Source: an uncultured cyanobacterium
GTDB taxonomy: Bacteria > Cyanobacteriota > Cyanobacteriia > Cyanobacteriales > CAWCAG01
Direction of reading: 5' to 3'
Length of the DNA stretch: 64,000 nt
Assembly (NCBI GenBank): GCA_963803805.1
Contig: CAWDOD010000010.1
Location: 64,001 to 128,000 of the forward strand
In this document: one piece after another, positions 3,022 through 26,678 of the stretch
How positions within the stretch are numbered: the stretch's first letter is position 1
How the letters are laid out: each line of letters begins with the position of its first letter
Position numbers and translations under genes: made by a program
Notes under the pieces: generated by a model
The model's input: the letters and a program-made list of their open reading frames with translations, nothing else
Databases searched by the model: none
What the model was told of the DNA's origin: nothing

Positions 3022-3951
3022 TTAACGCTGCTCCCTACCCTCACAAAAACCTCTGGTACTTGGTATAACCAACTCCTGCCAAGCCAACTTAGCTGCCCCT
3101 GCCATCCCTGCATCATTCCCTAACTCTGCCCTAACAAGTTGCAAATCCCCACGGGAACTAGCCATAACTCGCCGTTCAATCTCTTCTAAAGCCGCAGGAA
3201 AGAAAAACTCGGCACTAGCACTCACACCACCGCCAATTACTACAGCTTCTGGGGTTAAAATGTAAATGGAACTGGTTAAACCTGCTCCTAAAAGCTTGCC
3301 ATAGTTGCGCCAAAAAGCCAACGCTTCTGTATTTCCTGCTTTCGCCCTTGCCCCCAACACCGCAGGTTCTTGCCCCATTTGTCGTCGAATTGCAGCCACA
3401 GAAACATATTGTTCTAAAGAACCATTGTTACCACTATTGCAAGGTGGGCCATCAGGATTTAAAGTAATTAGACCTAACTCCCCTGCTGTACCTAATCGCC
3501 CCGTAAACAGCTTACCATCCAAAACCACCGCACCACCTACCCCCGTACCCAAGGTTAAGAGGATGAGGTTTTTAAATTTTTTACCCGCCCCTAACCAAGC
3601 TTCCCCTAACCCTGCACAGTTAGCATCATTAGCGAGAATTGCTGGTAAACCAGTTTTTTCTTTTAACCAATATCCTAAAGGAATATCCCGCCAACCTACC
3701 AAGTTAATAGCTATCTTAGCAACTTTCCCCCCTGCATCCGCAGGGCCAGGAGTACCAACACCAATGGCCACAGCTTGCTGATTAACATTAAGTTCCTGTA
3801 TTGCAGCCACCATAGCTTCTAACACGGCTTCCGGAGTAGAGGGTTGGGGAGTAGGAATATTTAAAGATTGCAAGCAAATCCCATCTTCTTGAAACCGCCC
3901 TAATTTAATAGCGGTTCCCCCTAAGTCAATACCAATAACTTCTTTTTGCAC
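3022..3951 (-). CDS. ROK family sugar kinase (glucokinase-like)
   Basis: GIDLGGT, NDANCAGLGE, LGTGVGG and GELG..CNSGNNGSLE motifs. Confidence 0.9.
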   Translation of the reverse strand: MQKEVIGIDLGGTAIKLGRFQEDGICLQSLNIPTPQPSTPEAVLEAMVAAIQELNVNQQAVAIGVGTPGPADAGGKVAKIAINLVGWRDIPLGYWLKEKTGLPAILANDANCAGLGEAWLGAGKKFKNLILLTLGTGVGGAVVLDGKLFTGRLGTAGELGLITLNPDGPPCNSGNNGSLEQYVSVAAIRRQMGQEPAVLGARAKAGNTEALAFWRNYGKLLGAGLTSSIYILTPEAVVIGGGVSASAEFFFPAALEEIERRVMASSRGDLQLVRAELGNDAGMAGAAKLAWQELVIPSTRGFCEGREQR

Positions 3952-15357: not shown

Positions 15358-16812
<1,455 letters not shown>

Positions 16813-17076: not shown

Positions 17077-17463
17077 TTACTTCAAAACAACTGTTGCACC
17101 AACTGCTTCTAACTGAATTTTGGTTGCTTCAGCTATTTGAAGATCCACTGACTGATTAATAGTTGTAGGAATAGAATCAACCATCTGTTTTGATTCTCGC
17201 AAGCTTGTCCCTATTAGGCTTCGTAATGCTTTAATGATGGCAATCTTATTTTCAGTAGGGACTTGCTCTAAAACTACATCAAATTCCATTGGCTTTTCAG
17301 AATGCTCCCCGGTTAGGTTAATTGGATCAAGGCTATAGGCAAAGGTGACTTGAGAAAACATATCTACATTGAAAACTGCTTCAATTTGCTTCACCAATGC
17401 CTGTGTTTCTTGAGAAGTTAGAGTTTGCAGTTGTTCAAGTATTTGTGAAGTTACTGTAGACAT
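17077..17463 (-). CDS. Ribosomal protein bL12 (L7/L12) paralog
   Basis: N-domain QILEQLQTLT..LVKQIEAVFNV and C-domain EFDVVLEQVP..KIAIIKALR..LEAVGATVVLK. AGGAGG RBS. Not adjacent to rplJ. Confidence 0.85.
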   Translation of the reverse strand: MSTVTSQILEQLQTLTSQETQALVKQIEAVFNVDMFSQVTFAYSLDPINLTGEHSEKPMEFDVVLEQVPTENKIAIIKALRSLIGTSLRESKQMVDSIPTTINQSVDLQIAEATKIQLEAVGATVVLK

Positions 17464-17489: not shown

Positions 17490-17646
17490 ATTTCCATACA
17501 AGTTAAGAAAGCTGTGTGTCACAATTTCTATCGCGTTTAACCACTCCGCCACAACTCCAATTGGGGTTGGTGGGAGTCGAACCCACGTATCTTTACAGAT
17601 AACAGATTCCTTAGTGTGTAAGCTTTTTAGATTGGGGTACGGAAAT
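17490..17646 (-). ncRNA. Y-RNA (YrlA)-like unit 2 with a permuted class II tRNA-like domain
   Basis: Order inside the shared stem: variable arm TATCT-GTAA-AGATA, T-arm GTGGG-TTCGACT-CCCAC, closed acceptor CAACCCC-AATT-GGAGTTG, D-arm TGGCGGAGTGGTTAAACGC. Confidence 0.82.
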
Positions 17647-17665
17647 ATTTTGGCGTGAAAATTAA

Positions 17666-17810
17666 ACCGCGTAAGTCAGTAAAGCTAGTTCAGATACATT
17701 CCACTGCTCTACTAACTGAGCTACATCCCCTTGACAACGGAGATGGTAGGAGTTGCACCTACGACCGATGGATCAACATAGTATGTAAGCTTTGCAAGTT
17801 GGGACGCGGT
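17666..17810 (-). ncRNA. Y-RNA (YrlA)-like unit 3 with a permuted tRNA-like domain (Ala-like acceptor)
   Basis: T-arm GTAGG-TGCAACT-CCTAC, acceptor CATCTCC-8 nt-GGGGATG, D-arm TAGCTCAGTTAGTAGAGC, and TCCAT/GTGGA stem. Confidence 0.82.
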
Positions 17811-17833
17811 AGGAATTTAAGGAAAAAGTGACC

Positions 17834-17950
17834 TCGCGCAAGTTAAAAAAGCTGTTAAGTATACACAGGAATCGCACCTGCAACATCTTGATTATGAGTC
17901 AAGCGCTCTACTATTGAGCTAGTATGTAAGCTTCTTAAATTGGGGCGCGA
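17834..17950 (-). ncRNA. RNA unit 4: non-permuted tRNA body (anticodon CAU) fused into the shared stem
   Basis: D-arm TAGCTCAATAGTAGAGC, anticodon arm CTTGA-CTCATAA-TCAAG, T-arm GCAGG-TGCGATT-CCTGT. Only 4 acceptor base pairs form. Confidence 0.8.
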
Positions 17951-17987
17951 AGTGCTGAACTTTATAGGAGCAAGAATTTAAAGGTGA

Positions 17988-18194
17988 TCCCGCGTAAGTT
18001 AATCAAGCTGTTAATATACTGACGCTCTACCACTGAGCTATATCCCCCATATTTTACGGAGTTAGGTGGCTAGGGAGAAATTAATTTCTATCTCCCCATT
18101 TCCCTATTTCTAGGGGGGATAACAGGACTCGAACCTGTGACCTTCCGTTCCACAAACGAAAAAGTATGTAAGCTTAATAAGTTAGGACGCGGGA
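17988..18194 (-). ncRNA. Y-RNA (YrlA)-like unit 5 with a permuted tRNA-like domain and long acceptor loop
   Basis: T-arm ACAGG-TTCGAGT-CCTGT, acceptor TATCCCC ... GGGGATA closed by an approximately 65-nt insert, D-arm TAGCTCAGTGGTAGAGC. Confidence 0.82.
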
Positions 18195-18208: not shown

Positions 18209-18457
<249 letters not shown>

Positions 18458-18473: not shown

Positions 18474-18503
18474 ATACTACACAAATGCTACAAGTCTTGT
18501 CAA
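18474..18503 (-). promoter_or_regulatory. Putative sigma70-type promoter for the ncRNA/TROVE operon
   Basis: Minus strand reads TTGACA-18 bp-TAGTAT, about 65 bp upstream of the first ORF. Confidence 0.55.
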
Positions 18504-18583: not shown

Positions 18584-19855
18584 TTGTCTGTTAATCTTTC
18601 CAGTATCCAGTTTCCCGGAGTTCACTGCTGCCGCCCCGTAGCAGTGGACTTATTTGCTGGTGCTGGAGGATTTTCTTTAGGCATTGAACAAGCAGGATTT
18701 GATGTAGTGATCGCAGTGGAAAAAGATCCTGTTCATGGGGCTGTACACCAGTTTAATTTTCCCTACAGTAAGGTATTATGTGCTGATCTAGGGACTCTTT
18801 CTGGCCAGGAGATTGAAAAGAACCTTAACCAAGAAATTGACCTGATCGTAGGCGGCCCGCCTTGTCAAGGGTTTTCAGTTATGGGTAAACGAAATCTTGA
18901 TGATGAGCGCAATAACTTAATTTTTCACTTTTGTCGCTTAGTTAAGGAACTACAACCCCGTTACTTCATTATGGAGAATGTTCCTGGTTTGACTCAAAAA
19001 AAGTATGCGGCAATTTTAATGAGGCTTAAAGAAGAGTTTAAATTAGCAGGTTATCAACTTACCGAACCCCTACAAATCCTCAACGCCGCAGCCTATGGAG
19101 TTCCTCAACAACGCCAGCGATTATTTTTATTAGGGACAAGAAAAGGGGAAAAGATTTTAACTTATCCCGATTTAGAACTAACTCCCTACCCAGTTACCGT
19201 AAGAGAGGCGATCGCAGATTTGCCAAACCTAGATGATTTTTGGGAATTGCAAAAGAGTGATGAAGTGGATTTATCACCAGAACGATTAGAACTTTGGGAA
19301 AATACAGCTAGCGATTATATCAAAACCTTACGAGGTTTAATTGATGATCCCCACAATTTTGCTTACCAACGTATCTGGAACCGAACCCAATTAACAAGTT
19401 CCAGGCAAACCCAACATACTACAACTTCTATCAATCGCTTTTGCCAAACGCTCCCAGGAAAAAGGGAAAGAATCAGTCATCTACAAAGATTAGTTTGGGA
19501 TAAACCCTGTCATACTTTACGGGCAGGAACAGGGGGAGAACGAGGTAGTTACACTTCTGCCCGTCCCCTCCATCCCCAATACCATCGGGTAATCTCGGTA
19601 CGAGAAGCCGCCCGGTTACATTCTTTTCCGGACTGGTTCCGTCTTCACACCACAAAATGGCATGGTTTCCGCCAAGTGGGAAATGCCGTTCCCCCTTTAC
19701 TAGGAAGAGTTTTGGGAAATCAAGTTACAGAGGCTTTGGGGATTAAAGCAGAAGTACCTCAACAAATTCTTGAATTAGGAGATGTGGCATTACTCCATTT
19801 AACTCATTCTCAAGCCGATCACTTTTTGAGGAGAGGGGAAGGGGGAAGGAAATAA
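18584..19855 (+). CDS. Orphan DNA (cytosine-5)-methyltransferase, possibly the HIP1/CGATCG-type cyanobacterial enzyme
   Basis: DLFAGAGG, GGPPCQGFS, ENVPG, PQQRQR and QVGNAVPP motifs. No adjacent restriction endonuclease. Specificity is inferred. Confidence 0.88.
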   Translation: MSVNLSSIQFPGVHCCRPVAVDLFAGAGGFSLGIEQAGFDVVIAVEKDPVHGAVHQFNFPYSKVLCADLGTLSGQEIEKNLNQEIDLIVGGPPCQGFSVMGKRNLDDERNNLIFHFCRLVKELQPRYFIMENVPGLTQKKYAAILMRLKEEFKLAGYQLTEPLQILNAAAYGVPQQRQRLFLLGTRKGEKILTYPDLELTPYPVTVREAIADLPNLDDFWELQKSDEVDLSPERLELWENTASDYIKTLRGLIDDPHNFAYQRIWNRTQLTSSRQTQHTTTSINRFCQTLPGKRERISHLQRLVWDKPCHTLRAGTGGERGSYTSARPLHPQYHRVISVREAARLHSFPDWFRLHTTKWHGFRQVGNAVPPLLGRVLGNQVTEALGIKAEVPQQILELGDVALLHLTHSQADHFLRRGEGGRK

Positions 19856-21718: not shown

Positions 21719-24700
21719 ATGATACAAATTCCTCAATCAACCATACTCTATCAAGTAGGAGGAAGCCTGCCTGTTGATGCTCCTACTTATGTGAAAAGGA
21801 AAGCTGATACAGAACTTTATGATGCTTTGAAAGCAGGGGAATTTTGTTATGTTTTGAACTCTCGCCAGAAGGGTAAATCTAGCTTGCGTGTGCAAACAAT
21901 GCAACGCCTAGAAGCAGAAGGAGTTGCTTGTGCGGCTATTGATTTGACTCGTATTGGTAGCCAAAATATTACCCCAGAACAATGGTATTTAGGAATTGTT
22001 AAAAACCTAGCCACCGCTTTAAACCTTTCTTTGGCCAAGCGCCCTAAGTTGGGACATTGGTGGCGAGATCGCTCTGATTTTTCTCCTTTACAACGCTTTA
22101 GCAATTTCTTAGAAGAAGTTCTTTTAGTCGAAGTTAAGCAAAAGGTAGTGATTTTTATTGATGAAATTGATAGTACCATCAGCCTTAACTTTTCTGCCGA
22201 TGATTTCTTTGCTTTGATCCGTGCTTGTTATAACCAAAGGGTTGATAACCCGGAATATAAACGCTTAACTTTTACCCTTTTAGGAGTTGCTACCCCCGCA
22301 GATTTAATTACTGATAAAAGTCGCACTCCTTTTAATATTGGTCGGGCTATAGAATTAGATGGTTTTGCTATGCCAGAAGCTATGACTTTGGCAAGAGGCT
22401 TGACAGCATATACAACCAATCCCCAATTGGTAATGAAAGAAATTTTGGCTTGGACGGGGGGGCAGCCTTTTTTAAGTCAGAAACTTTGTCAGTTAGTTTT
22501 TGAATCCAATGAATTTATTCCTGAAAACCAGGAAGCAGAATGGATTGAGGCTTTGGTTAAAAATCGCGTTATTAACCATTGGGAGGCACAGGATGAACCG
22601 GAACACTTGCAAACCATTCGCGACCGAATCCTCAAGCAAGAAGGGGGGGCCGCGCGGATGTTGGGGCTGTATCAGCAGATCCTCCAAAAAGGAGAAATCC
22701 TTTCTGAGGATAGTTCCGAACAGATGAATTTACGCCTATCTGGTTTAGTAGTGGAAAAGGGGGGAAAGTTACAAGTCAATAACCCCATTTATAAATACGT
22801 TTTTAATCAAAGTTGGGTAGATAAAGAATTAGCTACCTTGCGTCCCTATAGTGAGACTTTGAATTCTTGGTTTACTTCTGGTTGTCAGGATGAGTCTAGG
22901 TTATTGCGGGGCAAGGCTTTACAGGATGCCCTCACTTGGGCAGGGGGCAAAAGTCTTAGTAACCAAGATTATGAATTTTTGGGGGCTAGCCAACAATTAG
23001 CTAAGCAGCAAGTTCAAACTGATTTAGAAGCACAAATTGCGGCTAATCGTATTTTAGCTGGGGCAGAGAAGAAGGCGAAACAGAGAATACGCAGGGGTTT
23101 GATGGTTTTGGGGATTATTTCTGTTGCCTCTGTTTCTATAGTGATTTGGGGCAAAACTGCAATTATAAAAGGACAAACAGCCCTGAAACTAGAACAAAAA
23201 GGGATCAATGCCCTCCAGGAATTTGAAAACGAAGAGTTAGAAGCTTTGCGATCAGCGATCAAAGCAGGGGAAGAATTAGAAGAATTAGTGGGAGAAGAAA
23301 CTCCCTTGGAAGAATATCCGGCGATCGCACCAGTGTGGGTATTACAAAGAATTTTGGCAGAAATTCATGAACGCAACCAATTGTTAGGTCATCAAAGTTT
23401 TGTTTACGATGTAGATTACAGTAGGGGCGAGGGGCCTCTCGCCCCTGACAACAGCAAAATTGCTACCATCTCTGCTGATGGTACAGTTAGAGTTTGGCAT
23501 TCATCAGGGCGGGGGTTAAGTCAGTTTTCGATTAAGGTAGATGAAGCAGAGAACATGACTATGAATCTCAGTTTTAGTCCTGATGGTAAGAAATTGGTTA
23601 CTGCTTCAGAAAATGGTACAGCAAGATTATGGGATTTGTTTGGACAAGAATTGGCTAAATTTGTGGGACATCAAGGGCAAGTTTGGAATGTTAGTTTTAG
23701 CCCTGATGGTAAGAAGGTTGCTACTGCTAGCAAGGATGGTACGGCGCGTTTATGGGATTTATCTGGGCGAGAAATCACTAAATTTGTTGGCCATACCAAT
23801 GATGTTTGGTGCGTTGAATTTAGCCCTGATGGTAATTATTTAGCCACCGCCGGGGAAGATGGTACAGCACGGTTATGGGATTTATCTGGGCGAGAAATCA
23901 CTAAATTTGTCGGTCATGAGGAACAAATTTTTAGTCTCAGTTTTAGTCCTGATGGTCAAACTATCGCCACTACAGGGCTGGATGGTACGGTGCGGTTGTG
24001 GAATTTGTCGGGGCAACAGCTAGCCCTATGGCAGGGTAGCAGAGACTGGCTTTTTGCTATTGAATTTAGCCCCGATGGTAAATATTTAGCGGCAGCAGGG
24101 GCTGATAGTAAAGTTCGTATTTGGGATACTTCTGGACAACTTTTAGGGGAATTATGGGGCCATACTAACTGGATTTATGGCTTAAGTTTTAGTCCTGATG
24201 GCAAAAACTTAGTTACAGCAGGGCAAGATGGTACAGCCCGAATTTGGGATCTTAACAACACTTTTTTCCCTTCTGCTTACCAAGAAAAAGCTGAGTGGCA
24301 AGGAGGAGAAAATGAGTTGTGGACAGTAAGTTTTAACCCGGTAGTGGCGAGGGGCAGATCGCCCTTACTGGCATCAGCAGGAGAAGGAAATACTGCCAAG
24401 ATTTGGAACCTTTCGGGGGAAATGCTAGCAGAGTTAAAAGGCCATCCTAGTTGGATTTATAGCTCAAGTTTCACCCCCAATGGTCAAGGGATCGCCACAG
24501 GGGGAAAAGATGGGACGGTACGCCTTTGGGACTTATCAGGAAAGCAATTAGCTAAGTTTAGGATCGGCCGCTATAAAATCTATAATGTTGGCTTTAGTCC
24601 TGATGGTAAGTATTTAGCGGCGGCAGGGGAAGCTAGTACCGTTTACCTCTGGAATCTTGCTACTAAGGCGCAGATTAAACTTGAAGCCCATGAAGGGATA

Positions 24701-25267
24701 GTTAATTGGGTCAGTTTTAGCCCCGATGGAAAAACTATAGCTACAGCAGGACAAGATGGTACGGTACACCTTTGGAGTTTGTCAGGAGAGGAGTTGCGGC
24801 GATTTGGGGATGGTAAGAATGAAATTTCTAGTGTTAGTTTTAGTCCCAATGGCAAACGCTTGGTTACAACAACAGTAGACAATAAGGTGAAGTTGTGGAA
24901 ATCTTCTGGACAAAAAATAAATGAATTTAATACCCACCAAGGTGGAGTTTTAAGTGCTAATTTTAGTCCGGATGGGCAATTAGTTGCGATCGCAGGGCAA
25001 GATGGTACGGTACAACTGAGATTGGTTTCTGGGATTATTGGACAACAAATTGCTGAATTTAAAGGCCATGTTGGCAGAGTTTACAGCACTAGTTTTAGTC
25101 CGGATGGTAAGTATTTAGCTACAGTGGGGAAAGATGGTATGGTTCGCTTGTGGCGTGTAGAAAATTTAGATGAAATGCTGAAGCGTGGTTGCCAGTGGTT
25201 GAAAGATTACCAAGCTAACCATTCTAATCAAGAAGAGATTTGCTTACCGCAAGGAAGTAATAAGTAA
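21719..25267 (+). CDS. AAA-like ATPase + TM + WD40-repeat protein
   Basis: [22 protein letters not shown] and IFIDEID motifs; about 14 WD40 repeats. Confidence 0.92.
23421..23449. repeat. REP/SDR-like palindrome inserted in frame in the WD40 gene
   Basis: GTAGGGGCGA-GGGGCCTC-TCGCCCCTGAC adds RGEGPLA inside the YS|PD motif. Confidence 0.7.
24341..24368. repeat. Second REP/SDR-like palindrome in the WD40 gene
   Basis: GTAGTGGCGA-GGGGCAGA-TCGCCCTTAC, translated as VVARGRSPL in place of the usual DGK. Confidence 0.65.
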
Positions 25268-25530: not shown

Positions 25531-25627
25531 GTTGCAACTTCTAATAATCCCTATTAGGGATTGAAACGCCAAACTGCGATCGCATCCCTTTGAGGGACAG
25601 CAGGTTGCAACTTTTAATAATCTCTAA
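25531..25627 (+). CRISPR. Orphan CRISPR mini-array: one full repeat, one spacer, one truncated repeat
   Basis: 37-bp repeat GTTGCAACTTCTAATAATCCCTATTAGGGATTGAAAC (25531-25567), 36-bp spacer (25568-25603), then degenerate GTTGCAACTTTTAATAATCTCTA. Confidence 0.8.
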
Positions 25628-25666: not shown

Positions 25667-26678
25667 ACGTGAGTTCGACGGAGGAAAAAGAGAGAAAAGA
25701 AAAGCATCAGAGGTATGCTGAAAATGAATCTTAATCAGAATCTGATGCTATGTCCAATATTGTATCTCGTCTCGATATCACCCAAATATTCTGTCAGGTA
25801 GATGACTTTTATCAAAGGTTTGAGAGGCATTGGCAACAACAGCCAATGTTAACAGCAACTTGTGGAGAGCGTCTATGTCGCTCCCGCCTAAGCCTAAGCG
25901 AAGTGATGACCATTGTCATTGCCTTTCATGGTTCGGGATTTCGCACTTTTAAAGAATTTTACACTCTACAAGTCTTGCCTTACTGGAAGAAAGCTTTTCC
26001 CAACTTGGTCAGTTACACTCGATTCGTAGAGCTAATGCCGTGGAGCTTAATGCTTCTTTGCTGTTTTCTACATACTCTTCGAGGAGAAATTACCGGCATC
26101 AGCTTTATTGATTCTACCCCCATTGAGGTCTGCCACCCGAATCGCTCCAAAAGCCACCGTGTTTTTGAAGGTTTGGTAGGTTGGGGCAAAAATGCTATGG
26201 GATGGCATTATGGCTTCAAGCTACATCTAATTATTAATGACAAAGGTGAGCTGCTTGCTTTCAAACTTACAGAGGGTAATACTGATGACCGTAACCCTGT
26301 GCCAGATATGGCTGATGGCTTGATTGGTAAGTTATTTGGCGACCGAGGTTATATTTCTCAGGATTTGTTTGAGAAACTCTATGAACAAAGACTACAACTG
26401 ATTACACACCGCAAGAAAAATATGAAGCCGAAGTTAATGCGTCTTCAGGATAAGATTCTCCTACGTAAGCGTTCTCTGATTGAGACTGTTAATGACCAGC
26501 TCAAGAATATCTGTCAGATTCAGCATTCAAGACACCGTAGCGTTTGGAATTTTTTGGTTAATCTCTTAGCTGGTCTAATCGCTTATACTTTCTTGCCCAA
26601 AAAGCCTTCCCTTGACCTTGACCCCAAAGGCCTAGCTGAACTTCCTTCTGCTGTTTTTTAACTTCATCGAACTCACGT
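25667..26678 (+). mobile_element. IS982-family insertion sequence (1012 bp)
   Basis: Terminal inverted repeats ACGTGAGTTCGA/TCGAACTCACGT; 6-bp direct repeat TGTTGA at 25661-25666 and 26679-26684. Confidence 0.9.
25750..26661 (+). CDS. IS982-family DDE transposase
   Basis: FIDSTP, WHYGFKLHL, GDRGY and KRSLIETV motifs. Confidence 0.92.
   Translation: MSNIVSRLDITQIFCQVDDFYQRFERHWQQQPMLTATCGERLCRSRLSLSEVMTIVIAFHGSGFRTFKEFYTLQVLPYWKKAFPNLVSYTRFVELMPWSLMLLCCFLHTLRGEITGISFIDSTPIEVCHPNRSKSHRVFEGLVGWGKNAMGWHYGFKLHLIINDKGELLAFKLTEGNTDDRNPVPDMADGLIGKLFGDRGYISQDLFEKLYEQRLQLITHRKKNMKPKLMRLQDKILLRKRSLIETVNDQLKNICQIQHSRHRSVWNFLVNLLAGLIAYTFLPKKPSLDLDPKGLAELPSAVF

Follow-up and report, generated by a model that had tools for sequence, protein, structure and literature searches.

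The window analysed here, a 64,000-nucleotide stretch of DNA from an uncultured cyanobacterium, probably carries a polycistronic array of Y-RNA-like noncoding RNAs, lying in an operon with the genes for a small conserved protein (p66), a bL12 paralogue and a Ro60-like protein, each RNA consisting of a handle and a swappable effector module. This reading is built on a shared RNA scaffold, co-variation, tRNA-like fold signals, conserved synteny and the match of the protein to the Ro60 fold, all computed here. The operon would be co-transcribed and then processed into separate RNAs. The Ro60-like ring protein would hold the handle, while the tRNA mimics, L-shaped and always with an elbow, would act on factors that bind tRNA or the ribosome by tethering or occupying them, much as Y RNAs connect Ro60 with effectors. 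An earlier note on this DNA had described three circularly permuted tRNA domains with different apparent identities. We confirm its observation, while its interpretation is partly supported.

Organization of the locus

The array is encoded on the minus strand, to which all features below belong, with four tandem units at 18194-17491 and a fifth at 16963-16858. We named the units A, B, C, D, and E (units 2, 3, 4, 5, and 1 of the earlier note), and the gene order is p66, units D, C, B, and A, the bL12 paralogue, unit E, and the Ro60-like protein. The gene for p66 (66 amino acids, 18209..18409) is the first of the operon, the bL12 paralogue (17077..17463) is encoded between units A and E, and the gene for the Ro60-like protein (480 amino acids, 15358..16800) is the next large gene downstream of the array. 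The gaps between open reading frames are taken up by the units, leaving no space for promoters or terminators. The best candidate for an operon promoter is found upstream of p66 (18474..18503, TTGACA-18-TAGTAT, 10 of 12 matches), although promoter-like sites in the region are no more numerous than in shuffled sequence, making this weak evidence.

One handle with different modules

All five units are built on one conserved three-helix scaffold. From the outside in, this handle consists of helix P1, an asymmetric internal loop whose two strands are both conserved in sequence, helix P2 (centered on AAGCU/AGCUU), an invariant UAC, and the 4-bp helix P3, with a conserved 5' strand that reads ..CGCG(C/U)CC(U/C)AA(C/U)... 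A genome-wide handle scan found the scaffold confined to this locus within the 5.3-Mb genome; an extra candidate on contig 11 was not unit-like and was dropped. Eight matches to the 5' handle motif on viral contigs represent one homologous locus and were judged to be chance, as no paired 3' motif was found beside them (loose matches to it lay more than 900 bases off) and none of the genes for the Ro60-like protein, p66, and the bL12 paralogue was present within 3 kb. Inspected by eye, the conserved internal loop fitted a K-turn poorly, and that reading was rejected.

Four of the five units carry a tRNA look-alike, circularly permuted with closed acceptor stems in A, B, and D and unpermuted in C. 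Module and handle are joined at three different places, namely the anticodon stem in A and B (as in YrlA), the junction separating the D and anticodon arms in D, and the acceptor end in C.

Unit A (17645-17491) holds a YrlA-like permuted tRNA domain of class II type. Its anticodon-stem equivalent (17606-17602/17531-17527) is followed by a long 5-bp variable arm (17601-17588), which the earlier note had already recognized, the T arm (17586-17570), the 3' acceptor strand (17569-17563), a 4-nt closing loop, the 5' acceptor strand (17558-17552), and a D arm (17549-17533) with a 3-bp stem and an 11-nt loop. The acceptor contains an A3xC70 mismatch.

Unit B (17810-17666) is likewise a YrlA-like permuted tRNA domain, whose anticodon-stem equivalent (17771-17768/17704-17701) joins the scaffold; the T arm lies at 17762-17746 and the D arm at 17721-17706. 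Its acceptor is formed by CAUCUCC (17745-17739) and GGGGAUG (17730-17724) around an 8-nt closing loop; the G3(17728)·U70(17741) pair reported within it earlier is indeed present on the minus strand.

Unit D (18194-17988) is permuted as well, and its scaffold (P1 18194-18188/17994-17988, P2 18175-18171/18009-18005, P3 18167-18164/18019-18016) encloses an anticodon-like hairpin (18160-18144), the T arm (18138-18122), the 3' acceptor strand (18121-18115), a 65-nt closing loop, the 5' acceptor strand (18047-18041), and the D arm (18038-18024). Since the unit retains its own anticodon-like hairpin (loop UUGUGGA), the shared stem branches off between that hairpin and the D arm. The proposal that the anticodon position opens into the shared stem thus holds for A and B, but fails for D. 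Closing loops of 4, 8, and about 65 nt had been described for the three domains, and we find 4, 8, and 65.

Unit C (17953-17831) presents an unpermuted cloverleaf with a D arm (17919-17905), an anticodon arm (17903-17887, CAU at 17896-17894), and a T arm (17881-17865). What stands for its acceptor is just the 4-bp P3 (17925-17922/17864-17861), which continues into P2 and P1. The unit scores 50.7 bits against the Rfam tRNA model (RF00005) over model positions 4-67 only and is called tRNA-Met by ARAGORN. With positions 1-3 and 70-72 unpaired and lacking a 7-bp free-ended acceptor, it falls short of a full tRNA gene.

Unit E (16963-16858) joins the common scaffold to an extra outer helix (16963-16952/16869-16858) and has no tRNA module, bearing only a short pyrimidine-rich loop (16920-16904) directly 5' of the Ro60-like gene.

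The modules resemble tRNA and co-vary

Circular re-permutation at the acceptor loop, the in silico check that the earlier note had put forward, led ARAGORN (-i) to call a tRNA in all three permuted units, compared to none of the three in native order and none of 900 shuffled controls (0/300 per unit). Calls arose only when the cut fell within 8-12 contiguous positions, out of 138-148 per unit, where the acceptor opens. Together with the coordinates above, they establish for A, B, and D the order in which the T arm and 3' acceptor strand precede the 5' strand and D arm.

Alignments place each unit type in a family whose members across cyanobacteria show compensatory base changes. All the counts that follow were made on related, non-independent sequences, with units picked by motif patterns from the same family. 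The unit C family (alignment A2, 46 units) has 94.2% of cells paired and double changes at 22 of 35 pairs, a level reached by none of 500 shuffles, with slid controls pairing at 32-53%. The unit D family (A5, 17 units, among them the orthologue from the sister genome) shows compensatory changes at 23 of 39 pairs and the unit A family (A7, 9 units) at 17 of 32, including all three variable-arm and all seven acceptor pairs. For the unit B family (A6, 11 units) 91.1% of cells are paired; all seven acceptor pairs are kept, four of them with double changes, and the anticodon-stem equivalent is 90.9% paired with two double changes, while P3 is paired at only 34%, probably through misalignment. RNAalifold predicted neither the D stem in A2 nor the anticodon-stem equivalent in A6; both were tested by explicit pair counts.

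Complete closure of the acceptor (7/7 pairs) within 20 nt was found in 68 of 76 permuted modules, which comprise 32 distinct acceptor strands, against 179 of 3800 shuffled 7-mers. We used this stricter test, as a laxer criterion (at least 6/7 pairs within 160 nt) was passed by 43% of shuffles. The elbow could also be followed, by comparing G18/A18 of the D loop with U55/G55 of the T loop in the 132 modules parsed out of 227 distinct ones. Here we counted 100 GG/UUC, 25 AG/UGC and 4 AG/UUC combinations, 3 in which UUC accompanies a different D-loop signature, and no GG/UGC. This co-variation argues that the D/T elbow forms.

These data bear on two explanations in which the units have no function as separate RNAs. 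A decaying tRNA gene cluster or functionless repeat family would account for tRNA-like sequences with noncanonical features, of which the genome has a second odd cluster at another site, but strong compensatory co-variation and synteny conserved across many cyanobacterial genera already speak against decay, which we consider barely credible. The units could instead act in cis on the processing or stability of the operon mRNA, resembling tRNA punctuation and having no function in trans, with cuts by RNase P/Z or another RNase separating the p66, bL12-paralogue, and Ro60-like cistrons. Their position in the promoterless gaps would suit this role, and tRNA-like structures are established RNase P/Z substrates. 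Such elements, however, need neither a conserved handle nor its sequence-conserved internal loop; up to eight units stand in tandem between two genes, the module families are conserved with co-variation in every arm, and closed acceptor stems would be poor substrates for RNase P/Z. Punctuation is therefore improbable in our judgment, and the array of handle-plus-module RNAs remains our preferred reading.

Amino-acid identity and charging

The earlier note had pointed to G3·U70 of unit B as the known alanine identity element and to different apparent identities of the modules; comparison with relatives did not support such identities as meaningful. Among 11 unit B relatives (A6 columns 86/101), the 3:70 pair is G-C in eight, A-U in two, and G·U in one, the window itself; the sister genome has A3-U70. 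In that same genome the CAU of unit C is replaced by CAA and the GUG of unit D by GCG, while the 65-nt acceptor loop of unit D measures 8 nt. No module is a near-copy of any of the 46 ordinary tRNAs of the genome, and an anticodon loop is absent from units A and B. The amino-acid identities are thus not conserved, and aminoacylation is unsupported because G3·U70 occurs in only one of the 11 relatives and the loop triplets vary even in the sister genome.

Circularly permuted tRNA genes exist in Cyanidioschyzon merolae, where the two halves yield a complete tRNA with an anticodon loop by way of a circular intermediate. They and two-piece tmRNA share with the array the placement of the 3' half (T arm and 3' acceptor strand) upstream of the 5' half. 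They differ from it in that the array acceptors are closed by loops, two units have no anticodon loop, and the handle is not of tRNA origin; against the Rfam tmRNA_permuted model we obtained 14.1 bits, with a cut-off of 47. It is very improbable that the units are true permuted or split tRNA genes of the C. merolae kind, chargeable as such or in a two-piece version. The ARAGORN calls on re-permuted units would fit such genes, as would G3·U70 in unit B and G-1, C73, and the GUG loop in unit D, and M. smegmatis YrlA, the sole precedent for such cutting and charging, is described in PMC4201824 as being cleaved by RNase P and receiving CCA. The missing anticodon loops of A and B, the single G·U among 11 relatives, the altered triplets and shortened loop in the sister genome, the normal set of 46 tRNAs, and the non-tRNA modules found on the same handle all weigh against this explanation.

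The Ro60-like protein

The AF2 model of the 480-residue protein, of medium confidence (pLDDT 67, pTM 0.54), shows an N-terminal TROVE-type helical-repeat ring and a C-terminal vWA domain with a DxSxS motif. Solved Ro60 structures combine the same two parts, and Ro60 binds Y RNA at its outer surface and misfolded RNA in its central hole. In a Foldseek search with this model the best 11 matches were all Ro60, Rsr, or TROVE proteins, with E values of 8e-9 to 1e-6. VIA-align gave Z scores of 17.1-19.6 across 415-438 residues for the top 10 rows, the next tier being vWA-only matches with Z of 11.3 or less. Judging by the model, the protein looks like a very distant relative of Ro60/Rsr, either an orthologue or a distant paralogue, matching the fold over its full length and sharing the C-terminal vWA domain with DxSxS, but differing in a sequence identity of 14-17% and the lack of a Pfam TROVE match.

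Sequence searches gave little sign of this relationship. The protein did not match Pfam TROVE (PF05731) at an E value of 0.01 or less, a scan of the whole genome gave no TROVE match, and none of 29 divergent relatives matched TROVE, seven of them giving sub-threshold matches to the Pfam Ro60 vWA family. A PDB sequence search with the single protein returned no matches, the only match of the family profile there was a TROVE-domain phage protein with an E value of 0.62, and NCBIfam and PADLOC hold no family for the protein. A complex prediction for the Ro60-like protein and p66 scored 0.00, which is evidence neither way.

With a Ro60 fold in the product of the next large gene, the modules on their shared stem are best read as Y-RNA-like adaptors or decoys, in agreement with the earlier suggestion that different tRNA elbows are displayed as decoys or adaptors.

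Comparison with known Y RNAs

Known bacterial Y RNAs occur as one or two beside a recognizable Ro60 gene. In PMC4201824 and bioRxiv 10.1101/312249, YrlA is described as a tRNA mimic, several Y RNAs as adjoining rsr, and one Y RNA as a hairpin with a pyrimidine-rich loop. Units A and B resemble YrlA of Salmonella, Mycobacterium, and canonical cyanobacterial rsr loci in the order T arm, closed acceptor, D arm, and in an anticodon stem that continues into the putative protein-binding stem; class-II-type long variable arms, an adjacent Ro60-fold gene, and more than one Y RNA per locus are further likenesses. The array differs in having another handle, in its sub-threshold Rfam scores, in holding four to nine units per locus rather than one or two, and in the extra attachment topologies of C and D. 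Against the Rfam YrlA model (RF02553) unit B scores 32.1 bits (E 8e-5 in 1.1 kb) and unit A 15.3 bits, and unit D has no match; all miss the gathering threshold of 69 bits, so the units are not Rfam YrlA members. Of the YrlA topology noted previously for all three permuted domains, the part concerning A and B stands, whereas D departs from it through its anticodon-like hairpin. Unit E is a plain hairpin like YrlB, but differs from YrlB and D. radiodurans Yrn2 in that its handle is common to the tRNA-mimic units.

A GNCGAA-type motif near the YrlA 5' end has been proposed to bind Rsr (PMC4201824), and by reading we found GNCGAAN0-1G absent from the 5' strands of all five units. As given in supplement file 3 of that paper, canonical cyanobacterial Ro60 has 533-534 amino acids and one YrlA 103-512 nt away, whereas the array partner gene encodes 477-480 amino acids, about 50 residues fewer, and has no Pfam TROVE match. 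Rfam YrlA scores far under the threshold, a handle without the GNCGAA motif, a protein without a sequence-level TROVE match, and a model pLDDT of 67 count against the Y-RNA-like reading.

p66 and the bL12 paralogue

p66 has a predicted beta-grasp fold and an invariant C-terminal RPEAVYG, with 59-83% identity among loci. No family for it was found in Pfam, NCBIfam, or PADLOC, the ESM Atlas returned unnamed cyanobacterial clusters only, and Foldseek gave only weak ubiquitin-like rows (E of 0.23 or more). The bL12 paralogue, assigned by Pfam and TIGR00855, retains the N-terminal domain for dimerization and bL10 binding and the C-terminal factor-binding domain, with the Ala/Gly-rich hinge replaced (alignment A8); the canonical rplL is encoded elsewhere in the genome.

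The handle could have p66, the bL12 paralogue, or both as its partner, with the Ro60-like protein acting on other RNAs or on unit E alone. p66 lies upstream in 57 of 69 related loci, a linkage as tight as that of the Ro60-like gene, and is well conserved, both functional domains of the bL12 paralogue are intact, and the handle lacks the Ro60-binding motif published in PMC4201824. We nevertheless regard this arrangement as unlikely, given that the beta-grasp fold of p66 has no known RNA-binding signature, that the bL12 paralogue is present in 37 of 69 loci and missing in 32, and that most loci have a unit immediately before the Ro60-like gene. A short-loop unit ends less than 200 nt upstream of it in 44 of 77 related loci. 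Binding of the handle by the Ro60-like protein is the arrangement that we retain.

Distribution and implications

The Ro60-like protein is encoded in 517 of 554 candidate stretches of species genomes, and scaffold units were found in 76 of 80 examined loci, 333 units in total, with a median of four preceding the Ro60-like gene. Modules of non-tRNA type are also mounted on this handle, and related arrays hold modules like 23S rRNA that mimic the H69-H71 region and the sarcin-ricin loop with the GTPase-associated center. We found no description of the system in the literature searched, and it is absent from Rfam 15, Pfam, NCBIfam, and PADLOC.

These loci represent a second Ro60-like family, unrecognizable by sequence, that comes with arrays of handle-plus-module RNAs. 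The modules are interchangeable and mimic tRNAs or, as seen in related loci, functional centers of 23S rRNA. This modularity provides a natural experiment on the function of Y-RNA effector modules, with hundreds of co-varying sequences supplied for structural work, and it directs attention to translation factors or else to agents attacking tRNA and rRNA. It is conceivable, if rather doubtful, that the arrays form a library of translation-RNA mimics (tRNA in at least four orientations and 23S segments) serving as decoys or sentinels against such attackers, which may be anticodon nucleases, ribotoxins, and phage or competitor effectors. All mimics would be mounted on one handle for the Ro60-like ring protein, the bL12 paralogue, and the beta-grasp protein; the Ro60-like particle might detect damage to or capture of a mimic, or have it passed on to it, and the unconserved anticodon-loop triplets could reflect diversification of the bait. 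If this were true, it would constitute an RNA-level guard or decoy system widespread in filamentous cyanobacteria.

Canonical Rsr and the Ro60-like system occurred together in three of five genomes tested.

Architecture of the RNA array

The array lies on the minus strand, where four RNA units follow one another in tandem over 18194-17491 in the order D, C, B, A (5' to 3') and a fifth, unit E (16963-16858, minus strand), is separated from unit A by a gene for a paralogue of ribosomal protein bL12 (17077-17463). All five share an outer handle, composed of an outer helix with CGCG (P1), an asymmetric internal loop conserved in sequence on both strands, a helix around AAGCU/AGCUU (P2), a UAC that is invariant in all units, and a 4-bp helix, AUAC/GUAU (P3). 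The handle carries a swappable insert, the module. In units D, B, and A this runs from the T arm through the 3' acceptor strand, a loop, and the 5' acceptor strand to the D arm, with acceptor-closing loops of 65, 8, and 4 nt, respectively, exactly the permuted order with a loop-closed acceptor that an earlier note had described for these three units. Unit C carries CAU in the loop of an ordinary cloverleaf in which P3 and the handle take the place of the acceptor, and the insert of unit E is only a short pyrimidine-rich loop.

Related loci show further module forms. In several units (L032:3376, L042:2811, L046:2042, L050:3132, L087:2342, and others) the handle seemingly exits inside the D loop, with GG and the 3' D-stem strand at the start of the module and the 5' D-stem strand at its end, and some other modules are without any D arm. 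Some tRNA-like modules have a structured insertion of ∼25 to 45 nt in the T loop (L006, L009, L014, L030:2306, L032:3770, L044:1294, and L058:3268). A recurrent two-hairpin module (L033:4775, L038:4633, L054:1042, L060:4696, L068:4196, and L069:4616) is usually the last or penultimate unit upstream of the gene for the Ro60-like protein.

The modules resemble tRNA in shape

With Rfam gathering thresholds, unit C was identified as tRNA at 50.7 bits and a chimeric tRNA match of 38.9 bits combined B's 5' half with A's 3' half. Re-permutation in silico, which the earlier note had proposed, was performed by cutting the acceptor loop of each permuted unit and joining the outer ends, followed by ARAGORN with introns allowed. 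All three re-permuted units were called as tRNAs, compared to none of the three in native order, and a call was obtained only with 8 to 12 neighboring cut points of 138 to 148; none of 300 shuffles per unit was called. The anticodons that ARAGORN assigned derive from handle sequence and are meaningless. The topology had also been equated with that of YrlA RNAs, and this held in part: at relaxed thresholds the whole YrlA model aligns to unit B (32.1 bits, E value of 8e-5) and to unit A (15.3 bits), but the window units fail Rfam YrlA membership both on score and on the handle motif.

D-loop and T-loop signatures were compared in 132 parsed modules of 227 distinct ones. A GG in the D loop was paired with UUC in the T loop in 100 modules and AG with UGC in 25, while AG with UUC was seen in 4, another D loop with UUC in 3, and GG with UGC in none. 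Their counterparts in tRNA numbering, G18 and Psi55, are in contact at the elbow. Units C and B have the AG/UGC combination, which recurs across several different module types, and unit D has GG/UUC. This pairing of loop signatures indirectly suggests that the D/T elbow forms.

Co-variation was strong in every family alignment, in a sample of kin sequences whose units were chosen by motifs derived from the same family. Among 46 unpermuted units, including unit C, 94.2% of cells were paired and 22 of 35 pairs changed on both sides; none of 500 shuffles reached this level, and slid controls were 32 to 53% paired. Compensatory changes were found in 23 of 39 pairs among 17 D-type units (6 of 7 acceptor pairs co-varying) and in 17 of 32 pairs among 9 A-type units, the window's included (3 of 3 variable-arm and 7 of 7 acceptor pairs). 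The 11 B-type units, again including the window's, were 91.1% paired, and the equivalent of the anticodon stem, made by the two ends, was 90.9% paired with two double changes. Of the 76 permuted modules in which the T arm comes early, 68 closed a perfect 7-bp acceptor within 20 nt, versus 179 of 3,800 shuffled 7-mers, and the closed modules used 32 different acceptor sequences. That the units are decayed repeats is very unlikely, given these maintained pairs.

The earlier note had further assigned different apparent tRNA identities to the permuted units. The features are present, since unit A is class II-like, unit B has G3·U70, and unit D shares G-1, C73, and a GUG loop with the genome's real tRNA-His, to which it is otherwise dissimilar; they are, however, not conserved. 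At 3:70, the 11 B-family units have G-C in eight, A-U in two, and G·U in one. A sister genome, whose array aligns to the window's at a mean column identity of ∼89% (88% by BLAST), has A3-U70 in B, CAA in C, GCG and an 8-nt loop in place of 65 nt in D, and a shorter acceptor in A. The unpermuted units of the 46-unit alignment show 23 different triplets among 44 seven-nucleotide anticodon loops, and this loop (1.12 bits) and the variable region (1.23 bits) are similarly variable. True permuted tRNA genes would account for the ARAGORN calls and the identity elements, but because these elements are unconserved and the genome has a normal complement of 46 tRNAs, we favor mimicry of tRNA shape rather than of amino acid identity.

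A Ro60-like protein and its predicted operon

The 480-amino-acid open reading frame downstream (16800-15358, minus strand) has only a weak VWA_2 match in Pfam, fails Pfam TROVE membership, and has no match in NCBIfam or, by sequence, in the PDB. In its AlphaFold2 model (21 sequences; pLDDT of 67 and pTM of 0.54), the N-terminal region is built of helical repeats and a vWA domain follows at the C terminus. A Foldseek search of the PDB placed Ro60/Rsr/TROVE proteins in each of the first 11 ranks, among them Rsr of D. radiodurans, Ro60 of Xenopus and human, and a Thermus phage Ro60; the top 10 VIA-align rows have Z scores of 17.1 to 19.6 over 415 to 438 residues, and the next rows cover the vWA domain only (Z ≤ 11.3). 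A family profile matched solely a phage TROVE protein in the PDB (E value of 0.62), with an alignment that stays in register as far as the DxSxS motif. Among 29 divergent relatives, 7 had a subthreshold Pfam "Ro60 vWA" match and none matched TROVE. No canonical TROVE gene was found in the window's genome, and 3 of 5 other genomes with the system have one elsewhere. We place the protein in a separate family because the cyanobacterial Ro60 genes listed in supplement file 3 of Chen et al. (PMC4201824) encode 533 to 534 amino acids, each with one YrlA 103 to 512 nt away.

The protein is 70 to 93% identical across cyanobacteria, and a back-translated search gave relatives in 517 of 554 candidate stretches in species genomes, in genera including Nostoc, Calothrix, Oscillatoria, Microcoleus, Coleofasciculus, Spirulina, and Okeania. 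A DNA search that covered the window's own genome and 40 related ones detected unit C-like sequence with handle flanks, of at least 117 nt, in 13 of the 41, frequently as multiple tandem copies. A motif scan of 80 fetched loci gave 333 handle units, with at least one unit in 76 loci and a median of 4 (maximum of 8) upstream of the Ro60-like gene.

A gap of 14 nt separates the end of the gene for p66, a 66-amino-acid protein (18409-18209, minus strand), from unit D. The start codon of the bL12 paralogue follows unit A by ∼28 nt, with a Shine-Dalgarno sequence in between, and the Ro60-like start follows unit E by ∼57 nt. Of the promoter-like sites in the region, the best is upstream of p66, with site counts not above chance. 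Such spacing would also suit units that are pure mRNA punctuation, an alternative that is unlikely given the arrays of up to 8 units and the co-variation of the modules.

Where there was enough flank, p66 was upstream in 57 of 69 loci and the bL12 paralogue was present in 37 of 69. p66 has a beta-grasp (ubiquitin-like) fold, predicted with high confidence (pLDDT of 90), and an invariant C terminus, ...RPEAVYG, including the final Gly; no E1-like gene was seen near it. The bL12 paralogue keeps both bL12 domains but not the Ala/Gly hinge, and the regular rplL is elsewhere in the genome. Given this synteny, p66 or the bL12 paralogue might, though less probably, bind the units instead of the Ro60-like protein.

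The structure of the units, their conservation, the synteny, and the protein fold are shown computationally. From these, we infer that the operon is probably transcribed as a single RNA from which the units would be freed as stable RNAs, that the Ro60-like ring would bind the handle, and that the modules would act as Y-RNA effector modules engaging tRNA- or ribosome-binding factors. By analogy, the system may work much like YrlA/YrlB with Rsr. New are the common handle, the many-unit arrays, the accessory proteins, and at least three attachment modes of the tRNA mimic in the window, plus D-loop attachment in relatives. No description of such a system was found in the literature searched, including passages of PMC4201824, bioRxiv 10.1101/312249, and PMC7159879.

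Some arrays have protein-coding genes between units (L003, L011, and L012; other open reading frames in L005 and L010), including a conserved one of ∼250 amino acids starting MSEHRL. A C5 DNA methyltransferase (18584-19855, plus strand), also in the sister genome, is divergent from the operon, and an AAA-like ATPase with WD40 repeats (1,182 amino acids; 21719-25267, plus strand) is nearby; we found no link between the array and either gene.

23S rRNA-like modules and neighboring elements

On the same handle, related loci carry modules with 13- to 33-nt stretches 90 to 100% identical to the 23S rRNA of the window's genome. The first type comprises 22 of the 333 units (loci L023-L102) by motif, 21 of which match the genome's own rRNA operon (contig C10, offsets 3673-3705) in a segment that we take to be helices H69 to H71; examples are L028:2760 and L084:2395, and similar units at L003:1893-2100 and L005:1704-1900 were seen by eye. 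The second type, 1 to 5 kb downstream of the Ro60-like gene, starts with a sarcin-ricin loop motif in six units identified by eye (L046:7599, L047:8388, L070:10071, L078:9539, L082:7222, and L094:7973). After the motif comes a stretch that is presumably the H43/H44 GTPase-associated center (L11 region); BLAST against the genome's own 23S rRNA recovered the loop motif in two of the units and this second stretch in one. Taken with the bL12 paralogue, these modules look as if they mimic the factor-binding site of the ribosome. The 23S-like modules and the bL12 paralogue motivate a bolder reading, which we consider unlikely, in which the arrays would be decoys or sentinels for agents attacking tRNA and rRNA, linked to the Ro60-like particle.

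A CRISPR-DR5-type repeat occurs twice, 73 nt apart (25531-25567 and 25604-25626, plus strand); the pair looks like a remnant mini-array and adjoins a DDE transposase gene (25750-26661). Outside the window, contig C7 (50230-50490, minus strand) has two or three odd tRNA-like sequences clustered together, none with the handle; one is called tRNA-Met and has an acceptor stem entirely of A/U, one has an irregular anticodon loop, and ACACC follows the first two sequences.
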